Sequence record: DRR723986_4068
DNA length: 36,557 bases
Reading direction: 5' to 3' (one strand)
Made by a program: the position numbers and the translations under genes. The notes beneath the pieces are model-generated. The model saw nothing but the letters and a program-made list of their open reading frames with translations. It had not been told where the DNA came from and did not search any database. Each line of letters begins with the position of its first letter. The first letter of the stretch is position 1. This document shows positions 1 to 34,278 of this stretch, one piece after another.

Positions 1-1479
1 TGCAACACAGCCGCCCCGGTGATAGAGGCGCTTCAGAAGGCGTATGGCGAGAAACTACGGGTGTTGGCAATCGGGCAATCAGGACCAGAAAACGTTGCTT
101 TGCAGGAACGCCATAAACTCACGGTCCCGATACTGGACGACTTATCCTCCAAGACTTCTTTCGACTGGGATATCGAGATCGTGCCTTCGGTGTTCCGGAT
201 CGACTCTGATGGTGCGGTGGCGTCTCATTTCGAGGGGTTTGTGCGCGAGGAATGGGAGGCGCTCAGCGCAGACCTCGCGCGGAGCTTGGAGCTGCCTGCA
301 GCGCAGATCGATTGGGAAACCCTCCCGGCATGGCGCCCGGGGTGTGGCTCCAGACATCTCTATCCGGAAATCTATGATAAACTTGTTGCGAGTGCGGAAG
401 GCAGCGCCCTTCGAGCGCGGCGCATTGAGATTACCCCGGCCGATGATGTTTTCGAGTTCATGTTCGACCAGGGCTTTTCCGATGGCCTGCCGCTTGTGCC
501 TCCAACCCCCGAGCGGGTCATGCGAATGCTCGGCGGCACTCACCGTAATGCACAAGACGTGATCGCTGTCGTACCTCCCAATATGGGGGAAGCGACCGTC
601 GAAAAGATTGCCATCAACGCCGTGATGGCCGGTTGCAAATCTGAATACATGCCCGTCATCATCGCTGCGCTGGAGGCTGTGTGCACGGATGAATTCAACG
701 TTCATGGCGTTACGGCCACGACCATGGGAGCGGCACCTGTGATCGTCGTGAATGGTCCGATCCGTGAGAAGATTGGCATGAACAAGGGCCTGGGGGCGCT
801 CGGGTCCGGCAACCGCGCCAATGCCACGATTGGCCGTGCGCTGCGTCTGATCGTTGGCAATGTGGGAGGGGGAAAGCTCGGCGGTGTCGAGCGCTCCACG
901 CTTGGCAATCCCATGAAGTACACGATGTGCTTTGCGGAGAATGAAGAACGTTCTCCCTGGCCACCGCTTCACGTGGAGCGCGGTTTTGAAAAAGAGGATT
1001 CGGTGGTTACGGTTTTCGCCATGACGGGCGGGCCAGTGCATATTGTTGACCAGGAATCTCGCAAGCCCGACCAGGTCGCCGGGTCGATCGGATTGGGCAT
1101 GGAGGGAGTATTTCTCCCGAAGGTCCGAAACCTGCCGATAGACGCGCTTCTTGTCGTGTGCCCCGAACACATCGATACGCTGACCTGCGAAGGGGACTAT
1201 TCAAAGGATCGACTGCGCGCCCGGATACAGGAAGTAACCAGACGCCCGTTGAGCGAGATGGTGGCCGATGACACATCCGGTGCAGGTATTCCCCGGCAAA
1301 TGGCCGAAAAAATGGGGCCGCAGAAACTTGAGACTCCCGTGGGCAAGTTTGCGGGGCCGGAATACATCCATATCGTCGTTGCCGGCTCGGATGCCGGCAA
1401 GTTTAGCTCTGTTTTCCATGGATGGGCGACGGGCGAAATCGGCTCACAATCCGTGTCGCGTAAGATCGATTTGGGCTAG
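1..1479 (+). CDS. Thioredoxin/peroxiredoxin-like domain fused to a UGSC-associated conserved domain (5' end lies outside the window)
   Basis: Frame is open from base 1 (CNTAAPVIEALQKAYG..LRVLAIGQ..PILDD..IVPSVFRID, redoxin-like). It continues through a PGCGS linker into an FSDGLPLVPPTPERV / AINAVMAGC / RANATIGRAL / YTMCFAENEE domain typical of proteins encoded next to UGSC genes. Confidence 0.75.
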   Translation, partial: CNTAAPVIEALQKAYGEKLRVLAIGQSGPENVALQERHKLTVPILDDLSSKTSFDWDIEIVPSVFRIDSDGAVASHFEGFVREEWEALSADLARSLELPAAQIDWETLPAWRPGCGSRHLYPEIYDKLVASAEGSALRARRIEITPADDVFEFMFDQGFSDGLPLVPPTPERVMRMLGGTHRNAQDVIAVVPPNMGEATVEKIAINAVMAGCKSEYMPVIIAALEAVCTDEFNVHGVTATTMGAAPVIVVNGPIREKIGMNKGLGALGSGNRANATIGRALRLIVGNVGGGKLGGVERSTLGNPMKYTMCFAENEERSPWPPLHVERGFEKEDSVVTVFAMTGGPVHIVDQESRKPDQVAGSIGLGMEGVFLPKVRNLPIDALLVVCPEHIDTLTCEGDYSKDRLRARIQEVTRRPLSEMVADDTSGAGIPRQMAEKMGPQKLETPVGKFAGPEYIHIVVAGSDAGKFSSVFHGWATGEIGSQSVSRKIDLG

Positions 1480-1534
1480 AGACTTGGTTGGGAAAGAGTA
1501 TGATCAGTAAGAGGGAGTAAGAGAAGGGTACGAT

Positions 1535-2053
1535 ATGACAACAATCCTGGATCCCACTGACGAGCGCAAACCGGTTGTGCGCCAGATCACTCCGCGGAGC
1601 GGTGCGCTCATCGGTACGGTTGCATTGCTCGATATCCGCAAGCCGCGCGGCGATGTGTTATTGGACGAAATCGAACGCCAGCTCGCATCTGTGGCGCCGG
1701 GCGTTGCGATAAAGCGGTATTCGAAGCCAACCTTCACAAAGCCGTGCCCGGATGACCTACGCCGGGAAATTGCAAGCGAAGTGGATTACGTCGTCGAAGC
1801 GCTGGCTGATTGAGGTTCCTGTACGACGTGCAGTTTGCACGACACAGTCTGGTTTGAAATCCAGGGAATCCCAGCAGTCTCCGTCGCTTCGTCAGAGTTC
1901 GAAGAAGCCGCCAATTTTCAGCGCAGCGCGCTTGGAATGGAAGACGCGCGCTACGTGCTTGTTCCGCATCCCATTCAGGATGCCACTGACGACGAAATGC
2001 GCACCAAGGCGCAGCAGGCGATCACTTCGATCATTGATGCACTGACGCTATGA
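1535..2053 (+). CDS. UGSC-family selenoprotein (172 aa, Sec93 at TGA 1811-1813)
   Basis: ORFs 1535-1813 and 1835-2053 are in the same frame and separated only by one TGA. Readthrough gives EALAD-U-GSCTTCSLHD..E.QGIPAV, which matches the UGSC motif. A hairpin follows the TGA. Confidence 0.88.
1819..1847 (+). promoter_or_regulatory. Bacterial SECIS-like hairpin
   Basis: Upper stem CGTGCA(1827-32)/TGCACG(1836-41) with a GTT loop. Lower stem CTGT(1819-22)/ACAG(1844-47). The G-first apical loop begins after a 19-nt spacer from the UGA. Confidence 0.7.
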
Positions 2054-2149
2054 TATTCGTTTCATAGCAGGACGAGGGTGACCGCCATCAGGCATCGTCA
2101 GGAGAACCAGGCTTGAGGTGGTCAGTCGTGGCGCATGGACGGTCTGCAG

Positions 2150-2546
2150 ACGCGCGGCTGCCGCGCGCTCCGCAGCCTGACCTCCCACCTTTTGACAAAC
2201 GCTCGCGGAGCACGCTCGCCATTGTCATAGGACCAATAGCGGACATGGCTCCACATCGAGCATCGGCTCCGCAAGCAGATTCTTCAGCTTCGCGTTCTCG
2301 TCTTCCAATGGCTTGAGCCGCCAGGCAAAGGAAGCGTCCATGCTGCTATAACGAGCCTTCCAATGGCAGAGGGGCGCCTCCGATACACCGCGCTTACGAA
2401 GAAGGTCAGTCGTCTTCGCGCCCGCTTCTATCTCCTTCAACACCGCGATGACCTGTTCTTCACTGTAACGGGATCGCTTCATCTGTCCGACCTTTCTGAG
2501 GGCAGGACTCTGACTCTGACTGGCGGAAAGCCGTAGTGGCAGGTCA
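2150..2546 (-). mobile_element. IS3-family (IS407-group-like) remnant: left end plus degenerate orfA, orfB missing
   Basis: ORF 2482-2225 (MKRSRYSEEQVIAVLKEIEAG..GVSEA..HWKARY..LEDENAKLKNLLAE) is an IS3 OrfA. The minus strand starts TGACCTGCC at 2546, an IS3-type terminus. No integrase ORF follows. The inner boundary (2150) is approximate. Confidence 0.8.
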
Positions 2547-2876
2547 GAGGTAGCCGATCATCAAAGATCGGATCAGATAAATAAACAGAGGTCGGCCATT
2601 TCAGACTGCCGAAAGAGCTGCGAGCCGGTGCTCGGCATAATCTGACTTCGAGGTCAGTTCACCCGACCGCCTTAGTAGTGCTCAGGCACCAGCAGCGTCG
2701 TTGCGACGACAAATGGTCGGCGACTTGACAGCTCCGGATAGTCTTCTTTTTGCTCAACCGAGGTCATTTCAATTTGACCGGGCTGACGAGGAATCTGAAC
2801 ATGAGCAAATACCCTGCTTGTTTAAAGTCGGTTCGCTCTTACAAACGGTGCATGTGTACGACGGAGAGATTGCAAT

Positions 2877-4157
2877 ATGTCGATCGCTGAAGGTAGCAAA
2901 AGAGGACAAGTCCTTCCCGAGGATGTCGAACGCGTCCCGCTTGCCGAAATCGATGTGTCGCTACCTCAACGGTTCAGGGACGATACCTGGCAGCCCTGGT
3001 TTGCGCGGTTGCGTCGGGACGCGCCTGTCCATTTTCTGGAAGACAGTGCCAATGGCCCCTTCTGGTCAGTCACCAGTCATGAGGCTGTCATGGCTGTGGA
3101 TACAAATCACAAGGTGTTCTCCTCGGAAGCGAAGGGGATCGCCATCGTTGATCCTCCGGAGTCTGCTGAATCCCAATTGATGAGAAGCAAGTCCTTCATC
3201 ACGTTGGACGAACCAGCTCACGGCCAACAGCGCAAGGCGGTGTCGCCAGCAGTTGCGCCTTTGAACCTCAAGAATTTCGAATCGCTCATTCGCGAGCGTG
3301 CCGCAGATATTCTCGACAACTTGCCCGTCGGGGAGACCTTCAACTGGGTAGACCGGGTTTCCGTCGAACTGACGGCCCGCATGCTGGCGACCCTGTTTGA
3401 CTTTCCCTATGAAGACCGTCGCCAATTGATCCATTGGTCTGATATCACAACAGCCGTCCCTGGTGTGACCGGTGAAGACAATGACATGGAAGCGCGCAGG
3501 AAGGCCCTGATGGAGTGCGCGATGGTCTTCTTCAATTTGTGGAATGAGCGGGCAAGGCAGGCGCCCAGGTCCGATCTGCTCTCGATGCTCGCACATAGCG
3601 ATGCCACGAAGGACCTCAGCCGCGATCCAATGACAATGATTGGCACGATCCTGCTTCTGATCGTGGGCGGAAACGATACCACACGAAACAGCATCAGCGG
3701 AGGCGTAGTCGCCTTAAACCAGTTTCCCGATCAGTACGAGAAATTGCGGACCAATCCCGAGCTCATTCCCAACATGGTTTCCGAAACGATCCGCTGGCAA
3801 ACCCCGGTCATTCACATGCGCCGCACAGCCCTGGAGGATGTAGAACTGGGGGGGAAGGTCATCCGCAGAGGCGACAAGGTGGTTATGTGGTATGTGTCTG
3901 GTAATCGCGATGAAACGGTTTTCCCAGAAGCGGAGCGCTTCCTCATAGATCGTTCCAATGCCCGCCACCACGTGTCCTTTGGCTTTGGCGTTCATCGTTG
4001 CATGGGTAACCGCTTGGCAGAGATGCAATTGCGGATTCTCTGGGAGGAAATCCTCAAGCGATTTCAAACGGTCGAAGTTGTCGGAACGGTTGAACGTAGC
4101 TCGAACAATTTCATTCGAGGGATCACCGATGTGCCGGTACGGCTAAAACCGATCTAG
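2877..4157 (+). CDS. cyp153: Cytochrome P450, CYP153-like
   Basis: I-helix LLIVGGNDTTRNS, ExxR (ETIRWQTP), heme motif FGFGVHRCMGNRLAEMQL, N-terminal IDVS..F..D..WFARLR..PVH..GPFWSVT. RBS GGAGAG upstream. Confidence 0.92.
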   Translation: MSIAEGSKRGQVLPEDVERVPLAEIDVSLPQRFRDDTWQPWFARLRRDAPVHFLEDSANGPFWSVTSHEAVMAVDTNHKVFSSEAKGIAIVDPPESAESQLMRSKSFITLDEPAHGQQRKAVSPAVAPLNLKNFESLIRERAADILDNLPVGETFNWVDRVSVELTARMLATLFDFPYEDRRQLIHWSDITTAVPGVTGEDNDMEARRKALMECAMVFFNLWNERARQAPRSDLLSMLAHSDATKDLSRDPMTMIGTILLLIVGGNDTTRNSISGGVVALNQFPDQYEKLRTNPELIPNMVSETIRWQTPVIHMRRTALEDVELGGKVIRRGDKVVMWYVSGNRDETVFPEAERFLIDRSNARHHVSFGFGVHRCMGNRLAEMQLRILWEEILKRFQTVEVVGTVERSSNNFIRGITDVPVRLKPI

Positions 4158-4335
4158 CGAAGACAAGGTCTTTACGACCTCTTTTGAATTCCGATGCCGT
4201 GGGGAACTGCGTGAAATGCCTGATTCAAACCTGCTGCCAACGGATACTGAATAGCCTGATCCGCCGATTGGGCATTTGCAACGGTCGGGTCTTGCTGAAA
4301 AGTGCAGTCAGTACAATTTTGACAGTCCAACGCCG

Positions 4336-4370
4336 ACTGAACCGCGCCGGTATACCCGGCGCGGTTCAGT
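4336..4370 (+). terminator. Perfect 15-bp inverted repeat, probable terminator between convergent genes
   Basis: ACTGAACCGCGCCGG-tatac-CCGGCGCGGTTCAGT followed by TTGT. Confidence 0.6.
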
Positions 4371-4646
4371 TTGTGGATGAAGCCGAAAATGTCTGCTGTG
4401 CTGTCATAGAAGCACGCCCGAAAGCGAGGCTCTCTACTACGCACCGATCCGAAACATGCATGCAGCTGCCAGACCAATCTGGCCGACTGCGTAGAGAAGC
4501 GTAACGCCGGTGGGACAATCAAATGCCGGACAGAGACAAATAAGGAGCTTGACGCATAGGACCGATTAGCGAAGCGGACATAGCGGATTGTTGACTTTCT
4601 CCACCACGGGGACTGACGCAAAACCGCGCCTCAGCGTATGCCAGTT

Positions 4647-5219
4647 TTAACTCTCATCTGGATATTCGCGTAGTCCATGAACGTGAACGTCTTGACCAGA
4701 ATGAGCCTTGAGAATCTGCGTGGCTACGACTTCGTCAGCTTCGTTCCACGTGCGTACCCATAGAACGAGACCTCCGTGCGATAGTTCATCGGCAATATAG
4801 TCCGCATGACGTTGATCAATCATTCTGGCCAGAAGTGTACCGATCGCTACACCGCTTCCTCCACCGACTGCCAATGCAATCAGCGCGGCAGCAAGTGCGC
4901 CTCCACCTGCGACGACCGGCACAAAAGCTGCCAAAGCACCAACATATGTCAGTGAGGCAATGACAGCACCCTCAGCCGCTCCAGATGATTCTGTCGTGGC
5001 ATATGCGATCGTGGCAACGTCCGGATCATCTTCCAGATCACGCACAGACTGAAACTTGTGGCCCAGCTTTTTCTCAACAGCCTGCGTTGATGCGAGCAAG
5101 CTGATTTCCGCGCGATTGAACCCTCGCGTCAGAAGTTCGTCGATCGCAGACTGCATGTCTTTTTCAGTCTGGAAGACAGCGACGGCCTCTCGAACAGCAG
5201 GTATTGCCTTATCCTTCAT
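4647..5219 (-). CDS. Conserved hypothetical membrane protein (general stress protein/YflT-like architecture)
   Basis: REAVAVF..AIDELL..GF..EISLL N-terminus, Gly/Ala-rich hydrophobic hairpin, and L..GGLVLWVR C-terminus. RBS GGAGA. Confidence 0.7.
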   Translation of the reverse strand: MKDKAIPAVREAVAVFQTEKDMQSAIDELLTRGFNRAEISLLASTQAVEKKLGHKFQSVRDLEDDPDVATIAYATTESSGAAEGAVIASLTYVGALAAFVPVVAGGGALAAALIALAVGGGSGVAIGTLLARMIDQRHADYIADELSHGGLVLWVRTWNEADEVVATQILKAHSGQDVHVHGLREYPDES

Positions 5220-5238
5220 TATTCATCTCCATGAGAAA

Positions 5239-6552
5239 TCACAAGCCAAACGGATACGTGTCGGGTGCGCCTTCGGGGCCTTTGCCTTGCAACGGTGTAA
5301 CAGCAGCAGACTCTTTAAACCAGACAAGCCCGTCGAACTGATGAGCGAGATTGGCCTCGAAGTAGTGGCTCCAACGTTCCGTTTCCGGACGATAGATGAC
5401 GCCGATAGCCCGTTCGAGGCGGACATGGTCCAGCGCCCTTCGAATGCTTTTGTCTTTTCGCCAACTGGTGAAGCTGGCCGATAGGCCTGTATCCTCAAAG
5501 ATGCGCTCCCAGGAGTCCGGCCGGGCAGGAATGACCTTCTTTATCTTCGCGGCACTCCCCCAATCATCCGCTGCCATCACAGTGCCGGTGCTCGTCGCAA
5601 AGCCGATCGACACAACACCATCACCGAAATGTTCCCGGCACAGCTGGCCGATATTGAACTCACCCCGTTCGCCCATGCCGGTGGCACTGGCATTGCCGAT
5701 ATGCGAGTTATGCGCCCACACGATGGCCTTGGAATCCGGCCCGGCCTGGTCCAGCAAACGCAGGAGGGTTGAGAACATGTGCCGATCGCGCAGGTTCCAC
5801 GTGCTTACCAAACCATGATACATGGCGCGGTAGTATTGTTCGGCTGCCTGGACGACCCGCGCATTCTGTTCGGCATCGAAAAACTCGTCCCCGTCCTTCA
5901 TTGCATAGTCCAGGCGCTGGTCGAGCAGATCCAGCAACTGGCGCACCACTTCATCCTCACAGGTGCGACCGGTTCGCATCGCTTGCGCGCCGTAAATTTG
6001 TGGGCGTCCGACATAGGGAGACAGGCAGGCATAGCGTTCTCTCGCGATGGCTGCCGCATTCTTGTCGACCCGGTCGAGATAGGACAGCACTTCGGAGATT
6101 GATTTGTCGAGACTATAGACATCAAGGCCGCGCACAGCGACGCGGTCCTCCGCCGGCTGGATTGCATTCCAGTCGCGCAACGTCGACAGGCAGTCTGCAA
6201 ACTCCCGGTTACGCCACATCCAGCGCGGGAAGTTCACGAAAGCATCCCGTTCGCCCCAAGGTTCGCGGTCCCTGACATAGCGGTCAAGCTCAGCCGCATC
6301 CGGCCAGTCGCCCTCGATGGCAACAATCCGGAAGCCCTTCTGGTCGACGAGGCGCCGGGTGATGGCTGCTCGCGCCTTATAGAATTCAGATGTGCCATGC
6401 GTGCATTCGCCGAGCAGCACGACACGCGCTTCGCTGAATTCGTCCAGTGCTTCGGCAAGCGTATCGTACGGGTGGCTGGCAGGAAGCGGCAGGCTGTGCT
6501 CCGCAATGAGATCCGAAACCTCTGCGTTCGCTGCGGTACGGACTGTTTCCAT
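5239..6552 (-). CDS. Erythromycin esterase (EreA/B-like) family protein
   Basis: Motifs LLGECTHGTSEFY, AIEGDWPDA, FPRWMWRN, GLDVYSL, WNLRDRHM, VWAHNSH, ERAIGVIYRPETERWSHY and the C-terminal PDTYPFGL. Confidence 0.9.
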   Translation of the reverse strand: METVRTAANAEVSDLIAEHSLPLPASHPYDTLAEALDEFSEARVVLLGECTHGTSEFYKARAAITRRLVDQKGFRIVAIEGDWPDAAELDRYVRDREPWGERDAFVNFPRWMWRNREFADCLSTLRDWNAIQPAEDRVAVRGLDVYSLDKSISEVLSYLDRVDKNAAAIARERYACLSPYVGRPQIYGAQAMRTGRTCEDEVVRQLLDLLDQRLDYAMKDGDEFFDAEQNARVVQAAEQYYRAMYHGLVSTWNLRDRHMFSTLLRLLDQAGPDSKAIVWAHNSHIGNASATGMGERGEFNIGQLCREHFGDGVVSIGFATSTGTVMAADDWGSAAKIKKVIPARPDSWERIFEDTGLSASFTSWRKDKSIRRALDHVRLERAIGVIYRPETERWSHYFEANLAHQFDGLVWFKESAAVTPLQGKGPEGAPDTYPFGL

Positions 6553-7850
6553 TATTCTTCACCAGCAGGCGGTTGCTGAAGGAGTTGGATGACCTCACCG
6601 TCTGACAGTTGGTGGAAGTCCCGGTAATAGCTGCCCACAGCGCCGAACCGGTCCGGGGCGGCGAGCACGATCGCATCGTCCACCATTGCGCCGATGGCGT
6701 GCAGCGTATCGGCCGCGGCCACAGGGACCGCCACTACAATTCTGGCAGGGCGCCGTTTCCTGACCGCCAGAATGGCCGCTTTCATGCTGGTGCCGGTCGC
6801 AATACCATCATCGACCAGGATCGCGGTACGGCCTTCCGCCCGCACAGGCTCTCTGCCTGGCAGATAGAGGCTGCGCCGACGCTCGATCTCCTCAAGTTCC
6901 GGTTTTGCCAGATCGGCAATTTTTCCGGCATCGAGCCCGGTGGCCCGCATGACCGGATCATTGGTCACGATCTCTGCGCCTTCGCCGTCCACGACCGATG
7001 CCGCCGCAACTTCTGGCTGCCAGGGCACACCAATCTTGCGGACCATCAGGATGTCGAGCGGGGCATTCAGGGCGTCCGCGATCGGCCGGGCAACCGGCAC
7101 ACCGCCACGAGGCAGGGCATAGATGACCGGGGCCTCGAAGTCGTGTGCTAAGAGGGCCCGGGCGAGGAGCATGCCGGCTTCCTCCCGGTCTGCCATCGGC
7201 AAGGGGATCGTTTCCCGCACTGCGGGTGCCAAGTGTTTCGAGAACCATGCGCCGGACAGGGCCAGAACCTTGTCGAGTGTTCCGGGTTCCTCGAACAGGT
7301 GGCCGGCGTCCGGGACGACACTGATGCGGTGCTCGCAGGTCATTCGCGCTGCGGCGGCCTCATTTAACGCGAGGACTTCCCGGTCATTCCCGCCAACAAT
7401 CAGAAGGCTTGGCACGTGCACGTGCGGAAGGGCAGAACCGGCCAAGTCAGGCCGGCCACCACGGGACACAACGGCCCTGATATGTGGCGAGGCGGCCGCA
7501 GCTGCCAAGGCTGCGCCTCCGCCCGTACTCGCGCCGAAAACACCGACAGGCAGGTTCTGTAAACTCGTTTGCTGACGTGTCCAGTCGACGGCAAGCACAA
7601 CACGTTTTGCCAATAAGGCGATGTCAAAGACGTTGCGCCGGTCTCTCGCTTCGTCCTCAGTGAGTAGATCGAAAAGCAAGGTTGCAAATCCAAGCTGTTC
7701 GAAACTGCGCGCGGCATGTGCGTTGCGCGGGGAATGCCGGCTGGATCCGCTACCATGGGCAAAAATGATGAGGCCCCGTGCCTTTTCCGGCACGGTCAGG
7801 AAACCACCAAGCCCTTTGGGCCCGATGCGGATGTCTTCCGTTTGCATCAT
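6552..7850 (-). CDS. Fusion of a dienelactone-hydrolase-like alpha/beta hydrolase (N-term) and a phosphoribosyltransferase (C-term)
   Basis: N-domain: FAHGSGSSRHSPRN, FGASTGGG, VSRGGRPDLA, AGHLFEEPG. C-domain: ALPRGGVPVA, VRKIG, PRPP-binding ILVDDGIATGTS. Confidence 0.9.
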   Translation of the reverse strand: MMQTEDIRIGPKGLGGFLTVPEKARGLIIFAHGSGSSRHSPRNAHAARSFEQLGFATLLFDLLTEDEARDRRNVFDIALLAKRVVLAVDWTRQQTSLQNLPVGVFGASTGGGAALAAAAASPHIRAVVSRGGRPDLAGSALPHVHVPSLLIVGGNDREVLALNEAAAARMTCEHRISVVPDAGHLFEEPGTLDKVLALSGAWFSKHLAPAVRETIPLPMADREEAGMLLARALLAHDFEAPVIYALPRGGVPVARPIADALNAPLDILMVRKIGVPWQPEVAAASVVDGEGAEIVTNDPVMRATGLDAGKIADLAKPELEEIERRRSLYLPGREPVRAEGRTAILVDDGIATGTSMKAAILAVRKRRPARIVVAVPVAAADTLHAIGAMVDDAIVLAAPDRFGAVGSYYRDFHQLSDGEVIQLLQQPPAGEE

Positions 7851-8041
7851 GTGGGCACCATTTTTTGCAAGTATAGCACAACTTTATAGCAGTGCCTCCT
7901 GGTGATCCTTCGCTAACTACCGCCGGGTTGCGCCAATGGTCGCCAGGGCGCGCGATCTCATGCGTGCGCAATTGGTCATTTTTTTGAACGGGCACTTGGA
8001 CTGACCTGTCGTCCGAAGTGGCTCAAAGCCTGCTTTTGGCC

Positions 8042-9733
8042 TCAAGCTTCCTGTAACGACAGGCTGGCGGCATCTTTCCTGATAGTGAAGTTCTTAATCG
8101 ATCTGGCCTCGTAGACCGGCTTGAGCACGGTACTGACAGCAACAAAGCTGGCCTCTGCCATATCCATGCGCAGGACAACTCGAACGTAGCCCTGATGCAT
8201 ATTGTCCGTCCATACCACTTCAGGAACATTATCCGAAAATGCTTTATCAAGCGCCTCGGCTGTTTCATCGTCAAAGCCGGATTCTACGAAATCTCCCGGA
8301 GATGTCACGCCGGACGTGCCAAGCTCAATGCCCATGCTGGTGCCGCTCCCATCGTGAAGATGGTTTGCCCAGAAACTATGACTGTCACCAGTCAGAACCA
8401 GCAGGTCTGACGTCCCACTCGCTTTGCATGTATCGTAGAACACCTCACGCGCGGCGGGATACCCATCCCAGGTATCGGTATAGAATGGCAACCCATGCTG
8501 GCCGAGCCAGGCAAGACGCCTGTGTGCCTCAAGCGACGCTTCGTCTGGTGCCGGCAAAACACCCAGTCCGACAACATCCGGAACCAGCATGCGTGCCATC
8601 GGAATCTGGTTTCCGATCACACGCCAGGGCTGTTGCTTCGCGACAGAGCTGGAAAGCGCCTCCGAGATATCAGTCAATTCGATTGAGGATATCATGTGAC
8701 GCTCCGGATCGCCGAGAACGTCCTGGTGGAACGCTTCGTAGTCTTCTTCCGTGTTCAGTTTCGGAGCCCATTCAGCATAGTCCACTTGCTTGCCGCGGGC
8801 GGTATGGCGGGTTTCGAGTGTCAGCAAGGTTGCAAGGTCACCGAACACGTAGGACCGCCAGAATTGTGCGCGCGTGCGGCCGGCCTTCGGTTCACGAATG
8901 GGCATCCATTCATAGTAGGCCTGGATTGACGCTGCGCGGCGGTCATCCCAGCTTCCTTCTGTTTCTGGCTGATGGTTCTGCGCGCCGCCGGTCCAGGGGT
9001 TGTTTGCACTTTCATGATCATCCCAGCAGCAGATCAGCGGGTGCATGGCATGCATTGCGCGCGACCCGGCGTCTTGCTTGTACTGTGCGTGGCGCTGCCG
9101 GTAGTCAGCGAGCGTGATGATTTCATGGGGTGGATCATGTGGTCGCCCAATTACCGCGCCGGTTTCCTGACCCCAACCGTCCGGACCGCCATACTCGTAA
9201 ATATAGTCGCCCGTATGCAGGACGATATCGATCGCCGGATCATGAGCGATTGCGTCATAGGCGTTGAAATAGCCGAAGGGGAAATTCGAACAGGAAACCA
9301 GTGCGATACCCAGACTGTCGACTGCTCCAACAGGCAAGGTGCGGGTCCGGCCGGTGCGGGACACTTCGCCTTCTGCTTCGAATCGATAGTAGTAGCTCTG
9401 GCCCGGCTGAAGGCTGTCGGCGATGACTTTCACAGTGTAGTCTGATTCTGCCGAGGCCTGGCGGGAGCCGCTCGCGATAAGCGAGTTGCCTTCCGGGTCT
9501 TCGTAGATGGCCCAAGCTACTTCCACGATCGGCGAACCGGTTGAGACGCGGGTCCAGATCACGACGCTCGTTGTATCCGGATCACCGCTTGCGACGCCGT
9601 GCCGGAAAATGTCGGGGTCTGTAAATGAAGCGCTCGCGTCCTTAGCCTCAGGTGCACTTTGCGTGGCGCATGCCGTCGTGAGTGCGGTGCTGGACAAGAG
9701 GGCCAGGGCTTGACGGCGATTGATCCGGGTCAT
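8042..9733 (-). CDS. phoD: Alkaline phosphatase D, Tat-exported lipoprotein
   Basis: FRHGVASGDP, LHTGDYIYE, WDDHE..NN, AYYEWMPIR, DTWDGY, VLTGDSH. Signal INRRQALALL..LTTAC carries twin-Arg and a lipobox. Confidence 0.95.
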   Translation of the reverse strand: MTRINRRQALALLSSTALTTACATQSAPEAKDASASFTDPDIFRHGVASGDPDTTSVVIWTRVSTGSPIVEVAWAIYEDPEGNSLIASGSRQASAESDYTVKVIADSLQPGQSYYYRFEAEGEVSRTGRTRTLPVGAVDSLGIALVSCSNFPFGYFNAYDAIAHDPAIDIVLHTGDYIYEYGGPDGWGQETGAVIGRPHDPPHEIITLADYRQRHAQYKQDAGSRAMHAMHPLICCWDDHESANNPWTGGAQNHQPETEGSWDDRRAASIQAYYEWMPIREPKAGRTRAQFWRSYVFGDLATLLTLETRHTARGKQVDYAEWAPKLNTEEDYEAFHQDVLGDPERHMISSIELTDISEALSSSVAKQQPWRVIGNQIPMARMLVPDVVGLGVLPAPDEASLEAHRRLAWLGQHGLPFYTDTWDGYPAAREVFYDTCKASGTSDLLVLTGDSHSFWANHLHDGSGTSMGIELGTSGVTSPGDFVESGFDDETAEALDKAFSDNVPEVVWTDNMHQGYVRVVLRMDMAEASFVAVSTVLKPVYEARSIKNFTIRKDAASLSLQEA

Positions 9734-9804
9734 GAACAGTTCCTTTGTGTCGGCCTTATCGGGCCAGTTTCGGTGTTAGAAAAACACGAAAATTAAACGG
9801 AACG

Positions 9805-9831
9805 GAAGGCGGCCTCTTAGAGACCGCCTTC
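9805..9831 (-). terminator. Hairpin between the TonB receptor and phoD (terminator or mRNA stabiliser)
   Basis: GAAGGCGG..CCGCCTTC stem, with a T-rich run a few bases downstream on the minus strand. Confidence 0.6.
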
Positions 9832-9839
9832 GCTCAGAT

Positions 9840-12260
9840 TTACGTCAGTCGGTTCCCGTAGAAATCGGCCGTAATGGTCAGGGCAACCGTACGCGGCGCC
9901 GAAATCCAGGCCGCGTTGCCAGAGATACCGGCCAGCCAGTCCTGATCGAACACGTTATTTACGGTCAGGCGGAAATCGATGTTGGACAGGTCGTCCGAAA
10001 GAGCCGAGCCAGAGACGCCGAGATAGAGGTCGGTGTCGACATAAGAGTCGGCTGTCCAGGTATTCGACAAATTCACGAAGCGATCGCCAACCCATTTGGC
10101 AGAGGCGCCGCCATAGAAGTTGCCCTTGGTGAAGTCAGCCGACAGAACAAACATGTCATCCGGGATACCTGGAACCTTGTTGCCGACAGCAATACCGGCA
10201 AGGCCATCAAGTACGCTGTCTCCAGTTCCAAGGATCTTTGCATCGTTGTGAGTGTACGAACCGAAAAAGGTCAGGTTGTCATTCAGCAGGAATTCACTCG
10301 CCAGTTCGACGCCGGTAGAGTCGATACCCCCGCCGTTTATGTAGCCACCGTTCGAAGCCTCGAGATAGTCGATGCCCTCGACTGTGGCGGTTGGTGCCGG
10401 GAACAGGCGGTTTTCAAAGGTCGTGTCGAAGTAAACCAGCGAACCACGCAGGCGACCATTGGAGTAGCGAAATCCGACTTCCGTGTTTTCCGAAGTTTCC
10501 GGATCGGGGATACCTGCATCCACATTGATCACTTCTAGCACGCTGTCCGGGATCGCCTTGTAGTTCTCGGCGTAGCCGACGAACATTTCGAGGCCCGGCA
10601 CGGCGCTCGGTGCCCAGGACGCGCCGCCAGAGAACAGGACGTCGGATTCGGAATCCAGTGTGAAGTTCTTGTCCGGGTTTTGCGGATCGAAATTATCAAC
10701 ACGATCGATCGAGTTGTTGAATTGCTTTACGCCTGCCCGGATGGTGAAGTCGCCGAAAGAGACGACGTCTTCGACATACCATTTGAACGTGTTCTGCGGG
10801 AACTCGCGATCATACTGGACCCAGTATGCCAGACTGTCGAACTCCGGCCCGACGCGGGAGTCGATGATGCGGTGCCAGTCGCGATATTCGTAGCGGGTGC
10901 CGTCTTCATACCAGATACCGCCGCGGAGCATGTTCTCGAAGGCATCGAACGTCTTCGTCCACTCGACATCTGCCGTGATGCCGTAGCGTTCCCGCTGGTA
11001 GTGCGTGTGGCGGTAGGATGAGACCGGAATTGCGTTGGCCGGGTAGCAGGCCGGATCGTAGGCTGCGTTCGAGGTGCCGCCATACGGGAAGGTCAGGGAA
11101 GACTGACAACCCGCTTCCGGAGACAAGGCAACGCCATTTGGATCGACAAAGAACAGCTGGCCGAGGAGAGAGCCGCCCATCACGCGCTCGCCGCCCAGGA
11201 ACTCGCTTTCAGCGTTACCGGCGCCGTCGTCGGTCACATTGACAAGGTATGGCGGGGCCCAGTCGCCGCGGCCATCCATGTTATGCAGATAGACGCCGCC
11301 TTTGATTCTCAGCCCTTCGGCAACTTCCTTTTCAGCCTTGAGGTAGAGCAGGGAGTTTTCACGCAGCGTGCCCCAGACCTGACGATAGGACTGATCCACA
11401 TACGGAACGCCCGTCCAGTTACCGATCAGACGGTCGGAATTCGGGTCCGTTTGCCAGTCGGCTTCAGAGTACAGCTGGTCGTAGTTGTTCTCCGCGGCAT
11501 CGTCGTAAGAAGCGTAAGCTGTCCAGTCGATATCGAAGAGGGTGCTGACAAGTTTCGCGGCATAATGGTCGCGGCGGTTATCGGCAGAGCCTTCGATGTG
11601 ATCCGTTGCGGTCTGGCTTGAGACAGAGAACCAGGCTTTGGTCGTGTCGTTCAGGAAGGAGCCCGTATCGTATGCCAGGTAAAAACGCTGGGCCTCAAAG
11701 TCGCCGAGCGTGCCGGAAACACGTACGCGCTCTTCGTCTTCCGGATTGCGTGTCGTGAAGTTGATCGTGCCGCCGAGCGCGTCATTCGAAAGAGACGCGA
11801 TATCGGCTGTTCCCTGAGACACCTCAATGGCGCCCGCATTTTGGGTGTCGATGTAACGATTGGCCTTGGAGCCGCCGCCATAATTCGAACCGCCATTCGG
11901 CAGACCGTCAACGGTGATGCCGATCTGCTGTTCGCCGAGATTGTTCTGGAAACCGCGGACGGCGATTCCGGTCGACCAGTCGTCAAAGCCGAACGTGTCG
12001 CCCTCCGAAACCAGCACGCCTGGAAGGTTGTCGACCTGAGCCAGGATAGAGCTGACGGGGGCTTGCTGCAGCGCCATGGCCTCCGTGCTTTCAGCGGAGG
12101 AATAGGTCTGCGCCTGGCCGATGATGACCACTGTATCCATTTCACGGCGCTGCTCAGCTTGGTCGTCGGGTGTTGTGGAATCGACGGACTGCGCGATGGC
12201 GCTCGTTGCACACAGAGCGAGGCTGGCAGAGGCCAGCAGGCTCATCTTAAACAAAGACAT
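9840..12260 (-). CDS. TonB-dependent receptor, probably for phosphorus scavenging
   Basis: Signal peptide MSLFKMSLLASASLAL..AIAQ, TonB box DTVVIIG, plug (LPGV..GD.FG..IAVRGF..VDGLP..GGTINF), barrel end NNVFD..PRTVALTITADF. Start placed at ATG 12260, after a purine-rich RBS. Confidence 0.92.
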   Translation of the reverse strand: MSLFKMSLLASASLALCATSAIAQSVDSTTPDDQAEQRREMDTVVIIGQAQTYSSAESTEAMALQQAPVSSILAQVDNLPGVLVSEGDTFGFDDWSTGIAVRGFQNNLGEQQIGITVDGLPNGGSNYGGGSKANRYIDTQNAGAIEVSQGTADIASLSNDALGGTINFTTRNPEDEERVRVSGTLGDFEAQRFYLAYDTGSFLNDTTKAWFSVSSQTATDHIEGSADNRRDHYAAKLVSTLFDIDWTAYASYDDAAENNYDQLYSEADWQTDPNSDRLIGNWTGVPYVDQSYRQVWGTLRENSLLYLKAEKEVAEGLRIKGGVYLHNMDGRGDWAPPYLVNVTDDGAGNAESEFLGGERVMGGSLLGQLFFVDPNGVALSPEAGCQSSLTFPYGGTSNAAYDPACYPANAIPVSSYRHTHYQRERYGITADVEWTKTFDAFENMLRGGIWYEDGTRYEYRDWHRIIDSRVGPEFDSLAYWVQYDREFPQNTFKWYVEDVVSFGDFTIRAGVKQFNNSIDRVDNFDPQNPDKNFTLDSESDVLFSGGASWAPSAVPGLEMFVGYAENYKAIPDSVLEVINVDAGIPDPETSENTEVGFRYSNGRLRGSLVYFDTTFENRLFPAPTATVEGIDYLEASNGGYINGGGIDSTGVELASEFLLNDNLTFFGSYTHNDAKILGTGDSVLDGLAGIAVGNKVPGIPDDMFVLSADFTKGNFYGGASAKWVGDRFVNLSNTWTADSYVDTDLYLGVSGSALSDDLSNIDFRLTVNNVFDQDWLAGISGNAAWISAPRTVALTITADFYGNRLT

Positions 12261-12379
12261 TGCTTGTTCTTCCCTTGAAAATACCCGCCGCATTCACCCC
12301 CATGAGTGCGCCGGAAGAAATCATCTTCGTCTGTCGAGACTCGATGCTCGATCAGACCGGCATGAGCTAGTGAGAGCGT

Positions 12380-12397
12380 GTGACCGGCACGTGACGG
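12380..12397 (-). promoter_or_regulatory. Candidate Pho box
   Basis: Minus strand CCGTCAC-gtgc-CGGTCAC: two GTCAY units with an 11-bp period, 120 bp upstream of the receptor-phoD pair. Confidence 0.6.
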
Positions 12398-13001
12398 ATT
12401 TCACTACTATTTTTGAATTCGCTCTGGCCGGGATGGTGGCGTAGGGGATACCGTCATCGAACTTGCTGATCGGTACCGTATTTGTGGATTTCAGCGCGAT
12501 CATTCCGCTGCGACGAGACAGCGATAACGGCGGATGAATAAGTTTAAGTCTGTCACCGCAGGAGTTCAGCCCTCTGACATAACGAGGTTTGACCGCACCG
12601 AAGGGCCAGATTGGGCCAGAGTGAGCCTTTCGCCGCGCTTTCATCGAACGACAATCAATCGTCGGGTGGTGGCGGTGATATGCAAACTGGTGGAACGCGG
12701 AATAGACGGCATCTCCAAGCCCGCCGTATAGGCAAAAGGGATTGTATTTCCGATCTCGTGTTCGGCGGACATTATCAGCGCAGCCGGCTTTGAGATAGCG
12801 TATCCTGGAGCTGGCGCCAGAATTGATCCGGAACGCTTTCCGATATTTCTAGGCATCCTCCGGGATCATGCGGCTTGCGCTGATCCTGTGTGTCCGATTT
12901 CCGTTATCATCACGTAACGTCAAAGGGCTTCTCCGGTAACGTGGTATCGACTTATGTCACGAAACAGGTCGGCACTGAGTAGACCATTTCTATACTCACT
13001 T

Positions 13002-13840: not shown

Positions 13841-14236
13841 TCAGCGACCACCAGACAGTTTGTCAATTCGTCCGGTTTGAGCCTGGGTTAGAATGAGGGC
13901 GCCACTCAGGAAGGGGTATCCCCAGAAAATATCGACCTCCGAACAATCTGGCATCGCCTTCTTCAAGAGGTCGATCAATCGCCGCACGACCGGGTCGAAA
14001 TGCTTGTCCATTGCTTCGGCGCCCCTTTCGGGAGTGTTAACGATCTGGACGCTGAAGGCTCGGTAGATCTTCCAGCGGGTATGGCCCTGGCTGTAACGAT
14101 CGAGGTCGGTGTTGAGAAACGCGCGCTGTATGGCCGATCGGCCATTCTTGTTGGGGCAACCGCTCCTACGCGATTCAAGGTGTCGGATGCTTAGAGCGTT
14201 CTGCTTTGTGATACGCTGGGTAAGCTTGATCAACAA
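13841..14236 (-). pseudogene. Degenerate TetR-family regulator (C-terminal domain only)
   Basis: MDKHFDPVVRRLIDLLKKAMP..DIFWGYPFLSGAL.LT.AQTGRIDKLSGG resembles TetR C-domains of Caulobacterales/sphingomonads. No intact HTH, and the end looks truncated. Confidence 0.6.
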
Positions 14237-14381
14237 AATGATGACGGAAGCCAGACCTGAACAATCCAGTTCTCTGGTGAAATACCAGGGTATTTCAGAA
14301 CCGCACTACAGCACCCAGCTGCTCGACGCGGATTCCTCCTGAAGCGGCAGGCCATGGCCACGGCACGCTTTGTTGCCGGAG

Positions 14382-15308
14382 TCAGACCGATGCCATCTGC
14401 GTTTTCAGAAAGCTGGAAATTGCCGATACGGCTTCCGGCTCGGATAGCATGGGAGCATGCCCCCGGTTCGGTACGGTCACAAGCCGGCTGTTTTTATGGC
14501 GGCGGCTCATGCGATTGGCCGTCGCCGCGGTGAGAATGTCCGAGTGTTCCCCGCGTATCGTCAGCAGGGGGATAGATTTCATCTTGCCGAACAGACGCCA
14601 CATCATGAAATTGACCTTCCAGCTTGCGCCTGACACATCCATGTTTTCGGTAATGGCCGGATCGTAATCGAACAAAACCTGGCCGTGATCGGTTTCCCGG
14701 CAGGTTTGATGAGCAAACGCCATCCAGTCTGAGGTGCCAAAATCGGGAAATGCCGCTTGCTGGCTTGCGCGGATCGCGTTGGCGGCGGCCATCCAGTCCG
14801 GAAAGGACCGGACGCCGCTCGTATAAGCCGCAATTCGCTTCACACCTGCAGGGTTCACGGCCGGTCCGACATCGTTGAGGACGATTCCGGAAATGCGGTC
14901 TTTCAGCGCCTGTGACATGATCATGGCCATCAACCCGCCCATGGATGTTCCCATGAGTGCGACACGATCAATGCCGAGATCATTCAGAAGCGCGATCATA
15001 TCTCCGACATAGACGTCCGGGGAATAGGCGCGATTGGGATCGCGGTCGGATTGCCCCCGTCCGCGAACATCGACGGCGATAAACCGGGCTGGCACATCCA
15101 GCTGGCTGATAAGCGGTTCGAAATCCTTGTGGTTTCGGGTCAGGCCATGCATGCAGAGCACAGTCAGGGGGGCATCGACCGGGCCATAGTCGGCAGCGTA
15201 GAGGCGCAGGCCATCTGTAGACCAATAATAGATATCCCGCTTGTCCGCCTGTTGAGAACCAGACATACTTGTTTCTTCTTTCGGCGAAAGTCCTGGTTCG
15301 CCCGTCAT
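14382..15308 (-). CDS. Alpha/beta-fold hydrolase (esterase-like)
   Basis: CMHGLTRN, DVRGRG.SD, nucleophile GTSMGG, IRGEHSDIL, GHAPML. ATGA overlap with the upstream MFS gene; alternative start at 15266. Confidence 0.9.
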   Translation of the reverse strand: MTGEPGLSPKEETSMSGSQQADKRDIYYWSTDGLRLYAADYGPVDAPLTVLCMHGLTRNHKDFEPLISQLDVPARFIAVDVRGRGQSDRDPNRAYSPDVYVGDMIALLNDLGIDRVALMGTSMGGLMAMIMSQALKDRISGIVLNDVGPAVNPAGVKRIAAYTSGVRSFPDWMAAANAIRASQQAAFPDFGTSDWMAFAHQTCRETDHGQVLFDYDPAITENMDVSGASWKVNFMMWRLFGKMKSIPLLTIRGEHSDILTAATANRMSRRHKNSRLVTVPNRGHAPMLSEPEAVSAISSFLKTQMASV

Positions 15309-16603
15309 GAGGTTGCCGCTGCTCGTTTTGTGTCTCTGTCGTAAGTTCGTCCGGACAGGAATAGGAACACCACACTCAGAGCATTTAAAGCCAGGATGAT
15401 CTCAAGGGCGGATCTGAGAGGCGTTTCGGAACCGGCTTCCGCAAAGTGCGTGCTGAGCCACCCAGCAAGGGTGGGGCCACCGCCGATGCCGATAAGCGTC
15501 AGGCAAAACAGCATGAACGCCGATGCAAATGAGCGCATACGAAGCCCGACAAGTTCCTGCGATGCAGTGTACGCGATGCTTGCATAAACAAGACCGATGA
15601 AGCTTGGCACAATGTTCCAGGCGTAGGCCAATTCAATACTGGGCGCCTGAAGGAACATCCAGGCGAAAGGCAAGGCGAGCGCGGCACAAACGGCGATCGT
15701 CCACGGCCGCCACCTGAGATCACGGGTCGAAAGCCGGTCGCAGAGGCGTCCGACCACTACGGCGCCGATGCCGCCGACTCCGCCGATCAGCACGCCAAGC
15801 GGAATCGCCACATCACCCGGCCCCACTTCGTAGGTCCGTTGCAGATGGCTCGAGGTGAAAACCAGGAAGGCATTCGCCGAGATACAGATCAGGCAACACC
15901 CGGCGAGCAGGAACAGAAACGATGTCTGTCCACCGATGAAGGTGAGCGTTTCCTTCAAGGTGGGGGCCATGCCATCATCCGTACGCGCTTCGACGGCGCC
16001 GCGTACGGGTTCTTTCAAGGTGAATCTGACCAGCAGGGCCAGCAACAAGCCCGGTATGCCGGCGATGAAGAAGGCGGCCCGCCAACCCCAGATTTCGTAA
16101 ACGTAGCCACCGATGATGAAGCCGGCCAGAATCCCGATACCGATGCCTGTCGTATAAATTCCAAGCGCTGTCGCGCGTTCCTGCGGCCCGTAGAGGTCAG
16201 AGATGATCGAGGTGGCAGGCGGCGTTCCGCCGGCTTCACCAACACCGACACCCATTCGTGCGATAAGCAGGTGCCAGTAATTCTGCGCAAGACCTGAGAG
16301 CGCAGTCATCCCAGACCAGACGGCCAGCGCGAGTGTGATGATATTGCGGCGGTTACCCCGGTCAGCCCACATCGCAATCGGGATGCCCAGCGTCGCATAG
16401 AAAGCCGCGAAGGCGAGCCCCGACAAAAGTCCGAGTTGGGTGTCGTTCAGGTTCAGATCGGCTTTGATTGGTTCCAGCAGGATAACGAGGATCTGCCGGT
16501 CGATATGATTGAACGTGTAAACCAGCGTCAGAAGCAGGAGCACATAGGACCGGCTCGATGTTCCGATTAGTCCCGATCTGGAAGAAGACGCATCCGCGGT
16601 CAT
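15305..16603 (-). CDS. MFS transporter (spinster-like)
   Basis: About 12 hydrophobic segments, NHIDRQIL, GIPIAMWADRGNRR (motif A), ARMGVGVGEAG..P.ATSIISDLY. Confidence 0.92.
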   Translation of the reverse strand: MTADASSSRSGLIGTSSRSYVLLLLTLVYTFNHIDRQILVILLEPIKADLNLNDTQLGLLSGLAFAAFYATLGIPIAMWADRGNRRNIITLALAVWSGMTALSGLAQNYWHLLIARMGVGVGEAGGTPPATSIISDLYGPQERATALGIYTTGIGIGILAGFIIGGYVYEIWGWRAAFFIAGIPGLLLALLVRFTLKEPVRGAVEARTDDGMAPTLKETLTFIGGQTSFLFLLAGCCLICISANAFLVFTSSHLQRTYEVGPGDVAIPLGVLIGGVGGIGAVVVGRLCDRLSTRDLRWRPWTIAVCAALALPFAWMFLQAPSIELAYAWNIVPSFIGLVYASIAYTASQELVGLRMRSFASAFMLFCLTLIGIGGGPTLAGWLSTHFAEAGSETPLRSALEIILALNALSVVFLFLSGRTYDRDTKRAAATS

Positions 16604-16642
16604 TGATCCGATCCTTCGCTACAGATTGGTCTTCAATCGCAT

Positions 16643-16677
16643 CCGGCATGCGGACCGGGAGGTGGTCCGCATGCCGG
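16643..16677 (-). terminator. 14-bp perfect hairpin after the TonB receptor
   Basis: CCGGCATGCGGACC-7nt-GGTCCGCATGCCGG. There is no U-tract, so it is more likely an mRNA-stabilising or attenuating stem. Confidence 0.6.
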
Positions 16678-16694
16678 CCGTCCCCACGCCTGAC

Positions 16695-18989: not shown

Positions 18990-19085
18990 GATGTCCTCCC
19001 GCAGGTATGTTATTTTGGGAGGATTATTCAGAAGACGATCCGGATTTCGATGACGGGACGGCTCAGGGCTAGTGAACAGTTTCGC

Positions 19086-20153
19086 TCACGCGCCTTCGTT
19101 CACCGCAGCATCATTCCGGGCAAAAACCGCCGGCGATACGCCTCGCATCTTCTTAAATGCCCGGTTGAAGGCGCGCACATCGGAATAGCCGATCAGTTCG
19201 GAGACTTCAGAGACAGATGTGCCGCGCGCCAGCAGGGCATTGGCCCGCTCCATACGGTGGTTCAGCACCAGATCCCGGAAGGAGGTATCTTCTTCGCTGA
19301 GGCGTCGCCTGAGGGTCGCCACGCTGATGCTGAACGCGCTGGCGACCGCCTGCTGGGTTTCCAACCCTTCGGAGATCAGCTCTTCAGTCCGGATGGCGAA
19401 GGGACGCGTATCTGTTTCAGGCTCAAGCGTGTCCAGGTGGTGGATGACACGGGAGAAGATTCCATCGGTACTCAGGTCTGCATTCGTTGCCGGTGCGATC
19501 TGCTGGCACGCAGCCTGATAGTCAAACACTAGTTCGTATACGGTTTTGTTGTACTGAACCGGAACTTCCCAGAAGGATGTCAGCGTGTCTTCGATGTCCT
19601 TGCGGCCCCGGACAAGAGTCACGCGGGTCAGCGCCTTGCTGGCAACGCCGCCGGTCAGGCTGTCTATCAGGCAGTAGACCTTGATCAGCAAGGCATCCCG
19701 GACGAAGTGGAGTAGCGGTTCATTGTCCCGGAAGCGATAGGGGAATTTCGAGTCATCCAGGATGAGGGTCAGTGTCTCACCGCTTTGGCGAACCAGATTG
19801 TAATTCCCGCCATGCAGCATGTTGAAATAAGACGCCAGACTGCGGATCAGGTCCTGCAGGGTTCTCGCAGACTTCAATTGGGAAATCACGAAGGTGCCGC
19901 TCTGGTAGAGGAGCTTCCGTTCCGACAGCTGAGCCGTGAGGTCGTCCAGTGACTTCGCGATTTCGGACTGAATGCGGAAATAGTCGGTCAGCGGCCGCCT
20001 CGTGTGTGGCGCGTTCCGGAGTACCTCAGGGGCAACGCCGATCTTGCCCGCCACCCGATCCAGATCCACACCAGCCTCTTCTGCCCATGTCAGAATGGGT
20101 GCGATCTGGCCGATCTCGAAAACAATTCTGTCGCTGCCGCAGGATCCACTCAT
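19086..20153 (-). CDS. AraC-family transcriptional regulator
   Basis: C-terminal double HTH: VASAFSISVATLRRRL.EE.TSFRDL..A..LL..SVSEVSELIGYSDVRAFNRAFKK..GVSP. Start codon is uncertain; ATG 20153 chosen. Confidence 0.9.
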   Translation of the reverse strand: MSGSCGSDRIVFEIGQIAPILTWAEEAGVDLDRVAGKIGVAPEVLRNAPHTRRPLTDYFRIQSEIAKSLDDLTAQLSERKLLYQSGTFVISQLKSARTLQDLIRSLASYFNMLHGGNYNLVRQSGETLTLILDDSKFPYRFRDNEPLLHFVRDALLIKVYCLIDSLTGGVASKALTRVTLVRGRKDIEDTLTSFWEVPVQYNKTVYELVFDYQAACQQIAPATNADLSTDGIFSRVIHHLDTLEPETDTRPFAIRTEELISEGLETQQAVASAFSISVATLRRRLSEEDTSFRDLVLNHRMERANALLARGTSVSEVSELIGYSDVRAFNRAFKKMRGVSPAVFARNDAAVNEGA

Positions 20154-32802: not shown

Positions 32803-33047
32803 TGCGTGAAGGGATTAGCGAAAAGCAGCAGGAGAGAGACGACGAGGCAGTAAATCGCTGTGGTTTCGATCATTGCGAGCCCGACGAACAGGGTTCGTGA
32901 GATCGTCCCGGCAGATTCCGGCTGGCGGGCAATTGCCTCCAGTGCGGCGGCGACAGCACGTCCCTCCGCCAGCGCCGGGGCGACTGAACCAAGGCACACC
33001 GCAAGCGTCGCACATATGATACTGGCGATCTCGACATATTCAGTCAT
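32799..33047 (-). CDS. atpE: N-type ATPase c subunit
   Basis: PALAEG, IARQPE loop, [19 protein letters not shown]. Confidence 0.97.
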
Positions 33048-34010: not shown

Positions 34011-34278
34011 TGCTCCTCTATCCAGCGCCACGCCAGCACGAAGCCGAGAGCCGCTCCAGCCATCAACAGGGCGGCCGCCATGGTGATGCCCGTGTGCAGC
34101 CACTTGTCCAGCCAGTGCCCGATGAACAGCCCGATCAGGATAGGGACAATGATGATCCATCCAAGTGCGCCGATAGTCGCGAACCGTCGGGCGAGAGACG
34201 GTTCGGGGTCCGCTTTGCCGGCCTTGTCCAGCGCGTCGGCGCGGCGGGCGGCTTCTTCGGTGCGGTCGCTCTCGTTAC

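Follow-up and report, generated by a model that had tools for sequence, protein, structure and literature searches.

The 36,557-nt stretch of DNA analyzed here (the window) begins with two adjacent genes on the plus strand. The upstream one, at 1..1479, extends beyond the left edge of the window, which leaves out about 37 codons at its 5' end, and encodes a TlpA/ResA-like thioredoxin-fold N-terminal domain followed by a C-terminal region; we refer to it as the partner gene. The downstream one, at 1535..2053, appears to encode a selenoprotein of the UGSC family in 172 codons, with selenocysteine (Sec) at codon 93 and a terminal stop at TGA 2051-2053.

Direct reading of the sequence placed the ORF at 1535-1813 (ATG 1535, 92 codons plus TGA) in the same frame as the ORF that follows it, as the first-pass annotation had claimed in describing two ORFs parted only by TGA 1811-1813. 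When this TGA is read as U, translation continues to the second TGA and yields 172 residues containing EALAD-U-GSC-TT-C-SLHD, so that the predicted readthrough site, ALAD-U-GSC-TT-C-SLHD, is recovered as well. The putative Sec codon (1811..1813, plus strand) specifies the first residue of an invariant U-G-S-C motif. A purine-rich stretch resembling a Shine-Dalgarno sequence, GAGAAGGG (1521..1528, plus strand), was picked out by eye 6 nt 5' of the ATG and is a putative ribosome-binding site, and no terminator-like site was found 3' of the UGSC gene. The gene has no defect other than its in-frame TGA. Since TGA is the commonest ordinary stop in the window (13 of the 23 ORFs checked, the 1535-2053 gene included), an altered genetic code is not the explanation of TGA 1811-1813.

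The Readthrough Product Is a Member of the UGSC Family

The readthrough product matched two curated families over essentially their whole length: NCBIfam NF041046, "UGSC family (seleno)protein" (168.1 bits against a cut-off of 125; profile positions 4-147 of 147), and Pfam PF24696, "UGSC" (171.7 bits against a cut-off of 25; E 2e-50; profile positions 1-171 of 172). The PF24696 match is a single alignment that crosses the TGA and covers residues 3-171. U93-G94-S95-C96 falls at the aligned motif position, and these columns are invariant in 50/50 aligned members; among 93 Cys forms, the U/C-G-S-C motif opens with C and continues with G in 89, S in 74, and C in 89.

The existence of these curated entries bears out the earlier statement that UGSC-motif (seleno)proteins had already been described. 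The family was first reported in Hyphomonas, and a UGSC-containing protein has been present in selenoproteome surveys since 2007. The Global Ocean Sampling (GOS) data place UGSC among the most abundant selenoprotein families and include 255 forms with Sec and 21 with Cys (PMC2398784). Reviews give UGSC with NF041046 and an example accession (PMC13188914, PMC9312934), and a table entry for UGSC in PMC5029168 apparently refers to 26 genomes and 33 genes. None of the full-text "UGSC" matches listed was a functional or structural study of the protein.

Codon 93 Is TGA or Cys in Relatives

We examined the aligned codon in two sets of related loci. A genome scan with one genome per species found 589 relatives in 600 candidate stretches, and in the best 80, which were kept, the codon is TGA in 80/80. 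A further 80 metagenome loci were fetched with the upstream partner protein as query; 59 + 6 of these were readable at the Sec codon, and TGA was present in 65/65. Four metagenome loci were not counted at this codon, three because they end before it and one because of a frame break. TGA is therefore found in 145/145 readable related loci.

More distant relatives were sought with a profile search of 1.84 billion cluster representatives, which returned 2,328 proteins at E <=0.001; 147 of the best 150 were newly fetched and scored. The Sec column was covered by 100 of them, with Cys in 93 and another residue in seven (two S and one each of R, W, E, L, and G). The first-pass annotation had proposed that homologs should carry Cys or TGA at position 93, which is what the two kinds of search returned (TGA in 145/145 loci, Cys in 93/100 distant representatives). 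It had also predicted that gene callers would split the gene. Consistent with this, of the 120 database homologs listed, 115 align with no more than 53% of the query, and 47 of the 147 scored representatives are fragments, many of which stop at residue 92 or begin at residue 101.

Two further observations concern individual records. The residue-93 column holds Gly in P0002 and Trp in P0003 and P0246; these are protein records only, and the residues may be real substitutions or the product of gene calls made under another code. Contig L003, labelled as an acidobacterial metagenome-assembled genome (MAG), carries a UGSC locus whose protein is 78% identical to the window's and whose SECIS sequence equals that of Hyphomonas loci; mis-binning or gene transfer are possible reasons for its presence there.

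The Downstream Half Is Conserved as Protein

The codons that follow the TGA vary across relatives in the manner of coding sequence: Gly94 is written with four codons, Ser95 with four TCN codons, Cys96 with TGT or TGC, and Thr97 with four ACN codons (and one ATG). Codons 94-97 thus vary at the third position (almost) only, which argues that the downstream half is translated in the same frame. In a 50-sequence alignment, residues past the TGA are conserved as strongly as those before it, and U93, G94, S95, C96, C99, S100, H102, D103, E108, P113, and H145-P146-I147-Q148-D149 are invariant. Nei-Gojobori pN/pS values against four relatives are 0.06-0.30 for codons 94-172 and 0.16-0.23 for codons 1-92; as judged from these ratios, the downstream half is under purifying selection.

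The locus shows two marks of a bacterial selenoprotein gene: homologs have Cys where it has an in-frame UGA, and the coding sequence past that UGA is conserved. At the level of comparative sequence analysis, these results establish that UGA 1811-1813 is a sense codon and that the downstream half is translated and belongs to the same protein. Annotators should join the two ORFs as a single gene, enter Sec at codon 93, and name the product UGSC family selenoprotein.

A Constrained Hairpin Lies at the Canonical SECIS Position

The putative SECIS core (1827..1841, plus strand) is a 6-bp stem, CGUGCA/UGCACG, with arms CGTGCA at 1827-1832 and TGCACG at 1836-1841 and a GUU loop (GTT 1833-1835). The CGTGCA/TGCACG stem and its G-containing loop agree with the hairpin described initially; the distance does not, because the 19 nt assigned to the start of the stem separate the TGA from the loop, and the stem itself begins after 13 nt. 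The hairpin is paired in 80/80 distinct sequences, in which the loop is always G-U-N; pair 18-30 is G-C in 47, G-U in 31, and A-U in two, with no mismatches. In the fdhF gene of E. coli, SelB binds G23 and U24 of the loop, in a numbering that starts at the U of UGA. We take the G and U of the window loop to sit at these same positions.

Covariation in the hairpin stayed within the range of shuffled controls and was not significant, and five of the six pairs never vary. Because these pairs are invariant and the stem overlaps conserved codons, constraint at synonymous sites is the usable evidence for the hairpin. Across 84 unique sequences, Cys99 is TGC in 84/84, Ser100 is AGT in 84/84, and Thr98 is ACG in 79/84; in the two cases in which Thr98 is ACA, it is paired with CAT. 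Close to the hairpin but outside it, Cys96 is TGT in 50 and TGC in 34, and Ser95 and Gly94 each use four codons. Folding of the single sequence was no better than that of shuffled versions (z of -1.43 for 76 nt and +0.57 for 50 nt), so support for the hairpin comes from the comparison with relatives. A search of the whole window against Rfam at gathering thresholds gave no match, and around the TGA returned one chance snoRNA row (E 5.8).

The minimum free energy (MFE) structure (-9.8 kcal/mol) includes a possible lower stem in which 1819-1822 pairs with 1844-1847 (1819..1847, plus strand). We rejected it as a conserved feature: across relatives, 68.8% of the cells at positions 9-12 and 34-37 are paired.

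The bacterial SECIS (bSECIS) model, as given in PMC13188914, sets four limits: the loop spans 3-9 nt and has G within the first two positions, the stem counts 4-16 bp, the loop lies 16-37 nt past the UGA, and the MFE is <= -7.5 kcal/mol. The window hairpin has values within all four limits (loop GUU, 6 bp, 19 nt, and -9.8 kcal/mol). It differs from the model in that its family conserves the apical 6-bp stem only, the lower stem being lineage-specific, and in that no bulged U is evident. Judged by these patterns of conservation, a sequence-constrained hairpin occupies the canonical SECIS position.

Genes for Sec Decoding Probably Adjoin the Left End of the Window

No tRNA or sel gene was found within the window. 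The closest full-length relative, metagenome contig L116, is 89.5% identical to window 1-2089 and extends further to the left. It carries SelA (2713-4110; 484 bits), SelB (4107-5987), tRNA-SeC (6023-6117), and the partner gene (6192-7781), followed by UGSC. Window base 1 corresponds to L116 6303: the partner gene starts 111 nt before this base, and tRNA-Sec ends 186 nt before it. More broadly, tRNA-SeC lies just upstream of the partner gene in 35/72 evaluable genome loci and 37/51 evaluable metagenome loci.

We also looked for DNA of the window in public sequencing runs, and 19 of them contain 50% or more of the 31-mers sampled from window 1-4200. In run X1 (0.89 of sampled words), one 26,886-nt contig is unbroken over L116 2634-8356, from selA through UGSC, in the order selA-selB-tRNA-Sec-partner-UGSC; it differs from L116 at 634 positions and by 4 gaps (about 89% identity). 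Runs X16 and X17, which bear one organism label and share 0.60 of the words, each have a 526-nt contig equivalent to L116 6021-6546, which leads from tRNA-Sec into the partner gene; another of their contigs ends in 24 letters identical to window 2066-2089. Neither run covers L116 bins 4336-4947 (inside selB), a gap that is uninformative given short contigs at 3-4x depth. These contigs provide good but indirect evidence that selA, selB, and tRNA-Sec lie immediately to the left of the window in this organism. As runs labelled with one organism that appear to contain the locus, X16 and X17 may offer a route to experiments.

The remaining gene of the pathway, selD, is present in relatives G001-G005. 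In G003-G005 (L091-L093) it lies inside an open frame of ~730 aa, maybe as a fusion protein, and in G003 at least it shares a contig with the UGSC cassette; the selD of G001 and G002 is instead standalone, ~356 aa long, and located elsewhere.

The Closest Genome Carries a Stranded Copy

The genome closest to the window among those searched, G001 (labelled Hyphomonas sp.), is 92-93% identical to it over 5158-12513 and 14210-20000. At the UGSC locus, G001 retains only the equivalent of window 833-2088 (L001 3299-4554; 94.3% identity), which comprises the last ~650 nt of the partner gene and an intact-looking UGSC gene with its TGA. The fragment is flanked by genes for IS6/IS240-type DDE transposases (L001 2541-3245 and 4671-5060). 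No selA was found in G001, no selB scored above the cut-off, and no tRNA-Sec was convincing (the best candidate scored 47.1 bits, compared with 74-76 in relatives); selD, though divided between two contig ends, seems intact. With selA, selB, and a clear tRNA-Sec missing, the UGSC gene of G001 is a stranded selenoprotein gene. The same shortened form occurs in metagenome contigs L176 and L177, and this lineage does include a loss of Sec decoding. In the window, by contrast with G001, the partner gene is intact to base 1 and colinear with L116 and L002.

A remnant of an IS3-family orfA (85 aa; 2225-2482, minus strand) lies 170 nt downstream of the gene, and a search of window 1-6000 against a plasmid collection gave three weak matches only, all in this IS3 transposase stretch. 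In L116, UGSC is followed directly by an ATPase operon that in the window is found at 29794-36158 (79.5% identical), so that ~27.7 kb appears to have been inserted in the window between 2089 and 29794. This apparent insert begins with the orfA remnant and carries a P450, an erythromycin-esterase-family gene, PhoD, three TonB-dependent receptors, MFS transporters, and acyl-CoA enzymes. The operon itself is of the N-type (29788-36557, minus strand), encodes gamma, alpha, b, a, an AtpR-like ORF, epsilon, and beta, and runs off the right end of the window.

UGSC Has a Near-Constant Partner

Window base 1 corresponds to the second Cys of the partner's CxxC motif. The N-terminal domain of the partner can be assigned as TlpA/ResA-like from its thioredoxin (Trx) fold with CxxC and its match to Pfam AhpC-TSA/Redoxin; the public names TlpA, peroxiredoxin, and redoxin family fit this domain only. 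The C-terminal ~350-390 aa (window residues ~140-492) has 67 invariant columns in 33 sequences and defines a domain that is present in at least 7,996 database proteins and has no Pfam family. Searches of the PDB by sequence found no relative of the partner beyond its Trx domain, and all Foldseek and VIA rows listed for it fall within the first ~160 residues, on or just past that domain. The C-terminal part gave ESM Atlas matches with scores <=0.88 to clusters without Pfam families, which serve as leads only.

The association of the two genes was assessed from both sides. A partner homolog lies upstream of UGSC in 78/79 evaluable genome loci, and UGSC lies downstream of the partner in 69/72 evaluable partner-seeded loci. 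Clustering of the neighbouring genes singled out the partner, selB (30 loci), and a ~720-aa ORF (9 loci) as conserved and added no others. By its genomic distribution, the partner appears to be a near-obligate companion of UGSC.

Gene fusions point in the same direction. All 17 UGSC-family representatives of at least 280 aa contain the partner C-terminal domain, and eight of the 17 are full Cys-form fusions (P0316, P0379, P0387, P0315, P0298, P0335, P0318, and P0355; 188-303 bits). In the fusions the UGSC(Cys) domain precedes the partner C-terminal domain and no TlpA-like domain is present; in the window, conversely, the partner gene comes first. Of 11 fusions compared, 10 retain Cys249 of the partner domain (residue 212 in the window, 249 in L116). 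Also preserved in the fusions are DGxP, TT, GP, GRA, N324, K343, E350/E352, and H427.

Predicted Fold and Conserved Residues of UGSC

The AF2 model of UGSC has a mean pLDDT of 92.5. Its predicted fold is flavodoxin-like, not thioredoxin-like: a five-stranded, doubly wound parallel alpha/beta structure. Sec93 and Cys96 are placed at the N-terminus of helix 3, and three segments that show no variation in the Sec clade (KPRG 36-39, KPTF 64-67, and HPIQD 145-149) come after the C-terminal ends of strands. Fold searches with UGSC returned generic flavodoxin-like or Rossmann-like rows only, and a search of the PDB by sequence found no relative. The core conserved family-wide consists of U/C-G-S-C together with K36, K64, D103, E108, P113, and H145-P146.

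The third Cys of the motif region had been proposed to create overlapping UxxC and CxxC motifs that could be redox-active or metal-binding. The third Cys is invariant only within the Sec clade, where C99 is Cys in 50/50 sequences; among Cys forms the residue is Cys in only 23/93 and Trp in 41/93. An obligatory three-ligand metal site is consequently not a family feature. The placement of a Sec/Cys pair at a helix N-terminus, in a protein with Cys-form homologs, suggests thiol/selenol redox chemistry.

Interpretation of the Locus

Together, these results indicate that window 1535-2053 is very probably a working gene for a UGSC-family selenoprotein, a reading to which we assign a probability of about 0.88. 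The single 172-aa selenoprotein postulated in the first-pass annotation is upheld by the matches to NF041046 and PF24696 across the TGA, by the TGA/Cys column, and by the conserved hairpin. The main competing account is that the gene is an untranslatable relic: this genome would have lost selA, selB, and tRNA-Sec, as did its closest relative, and the gene would yield a 92-residue fragment or nothing. The IS-flanked relic of G001, with its counterparts in L176 and L177, leaves this account some weight, and both the IS3 orfA remnant downstream and the absence of sel genes from the window itself are compatible with it. We nevertheless consider it improbable: the window's partner gene is intact to the first base and colinear with L116 and L002, the contigs of runs that contain window DNA continue through tRNA-Sec, selB, and selA, and the UGSC gene is otherwise free of defects.

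It is somewhat less probable still that UGA 93 is read by a standard tRNA (Trp, Cys, or Gly), or by low-level suppression, rather than as Sec. The Gly in P0002 and the Trp in P0003 and P0246 hint that a non-Sec residue might be tolerated in this column, yet these may reflect the gene caller or code of the source, and a standard tRNA would hardly account for a TGA kept in 145/145 loci beside a frozen SECIS-like hairpin or for a tRNA-Sec that so often adjoins the locus (35/72 genome and 37/51 metagenome loci). The least probable account is that of two independent small genes (of 92 aa, and of 72 aa from TTG 1835) or of a gene recently killed by a nonsense mutation. Codon 101 could indeed serve as a start in most relatives (TTG in 43, ATG in 21, GTG in 7, and CTG in 13 of 84), and gene callers emit 72-76-aa proteins from it (e.g., P0284, P0356, and P0360). 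However, codons 94-100, which lie 5' of such a start, are (near-)invariant in protein while varying synonymously, and full-length Cys forms are single proteins. The third-position variation of codons 94-97, the invariant residues, and the pN/pS of 0.06-0.30 led us to reject two independent genes, and conservation of the TGA in all 145 loci excludes a recent nonsense mutation.

If the 1535-2053 gene works as a selenoprotein gene, the established bacterial mechanism would have SelB, carrying Sec-tRNA(Sec), bind the hairpin at 1827-1841 and insert Sec at codon 93. The U-G-S-C motif might then act as a selenol/thiol redox pair working with the product of the upstream gene. UGSC could exchange reducing equivalents with the TlpA-like CxxC of the partner, with its conserved C-terminal Cys (L116 249, window 212), or with both, and the partner C-terminal domain would carry the substrate chemistry. 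As a tentative extension, which we regard as possible and rather less than even odds, UGSC and its partner may form a dedicated two-protein selenoenzyme (fused in some bacteria) that catalyzes an undescribed reaction with a selenol on a flavodoxin-like scaffold; in marine alphaproteobacteria, the pair and selA-selB-tRNA-Sec would travel together in a compact, IS-prone cassette, of which UGSC would be the main or sole client. Such a cassette, if real, would explain why the closest relative of the window lost its decoding genes and kept a stranded fragment.

Comparison with Known Systems

The window gene agrees with the UGSC family as catalogued in NF041046/PF24696 in length and in its U-G-S-C motif, and it matches both HMMs over their full length and above their cut-offs; it is an ortholog with no essential difference. 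It is thus an ordinary ortholog of an already catalogued selenoprotein family, in the genus where the family was first noted. Among aquatic selenoprotein families, UGSC ranks with the most abundant, and the wider value of the present gene is modest. The leads added here concern UGSC at large: a near-obligate partner with an unnamed domain, a predicted non-Trx scaffold, and the core residues of the family.

The motif of UGSC resembles that of UxxC/CxxU selenoproteins with a thioredoxin fold (Trx-, Prx-, and DsbA-like), which likewise have a Sec/Cys pair two residues apart at a helix N-terminus and Cys-form homologs. The difference lies in the scaffold, which in UGSC is predicted to be non-Trx, the Trx-fold protein being the neighbouring partner. 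A "Trx-like fold" was proposed for the UGSC protein in PMC2398784; the AF2 model is instead flavodoxin-like.

The same study reports GOS proteins in which UGSC is fused to a domain termed "Unknown_1" (PMC2398784). Fusions of UGSC with the partner C-terminal domain were found here independently, and we infer that "Unknown_1" is this C-terminal domain. Relative to the GOS fusion, the window has the two as separate genes, and its partner carries an additional TlpA-like domain.
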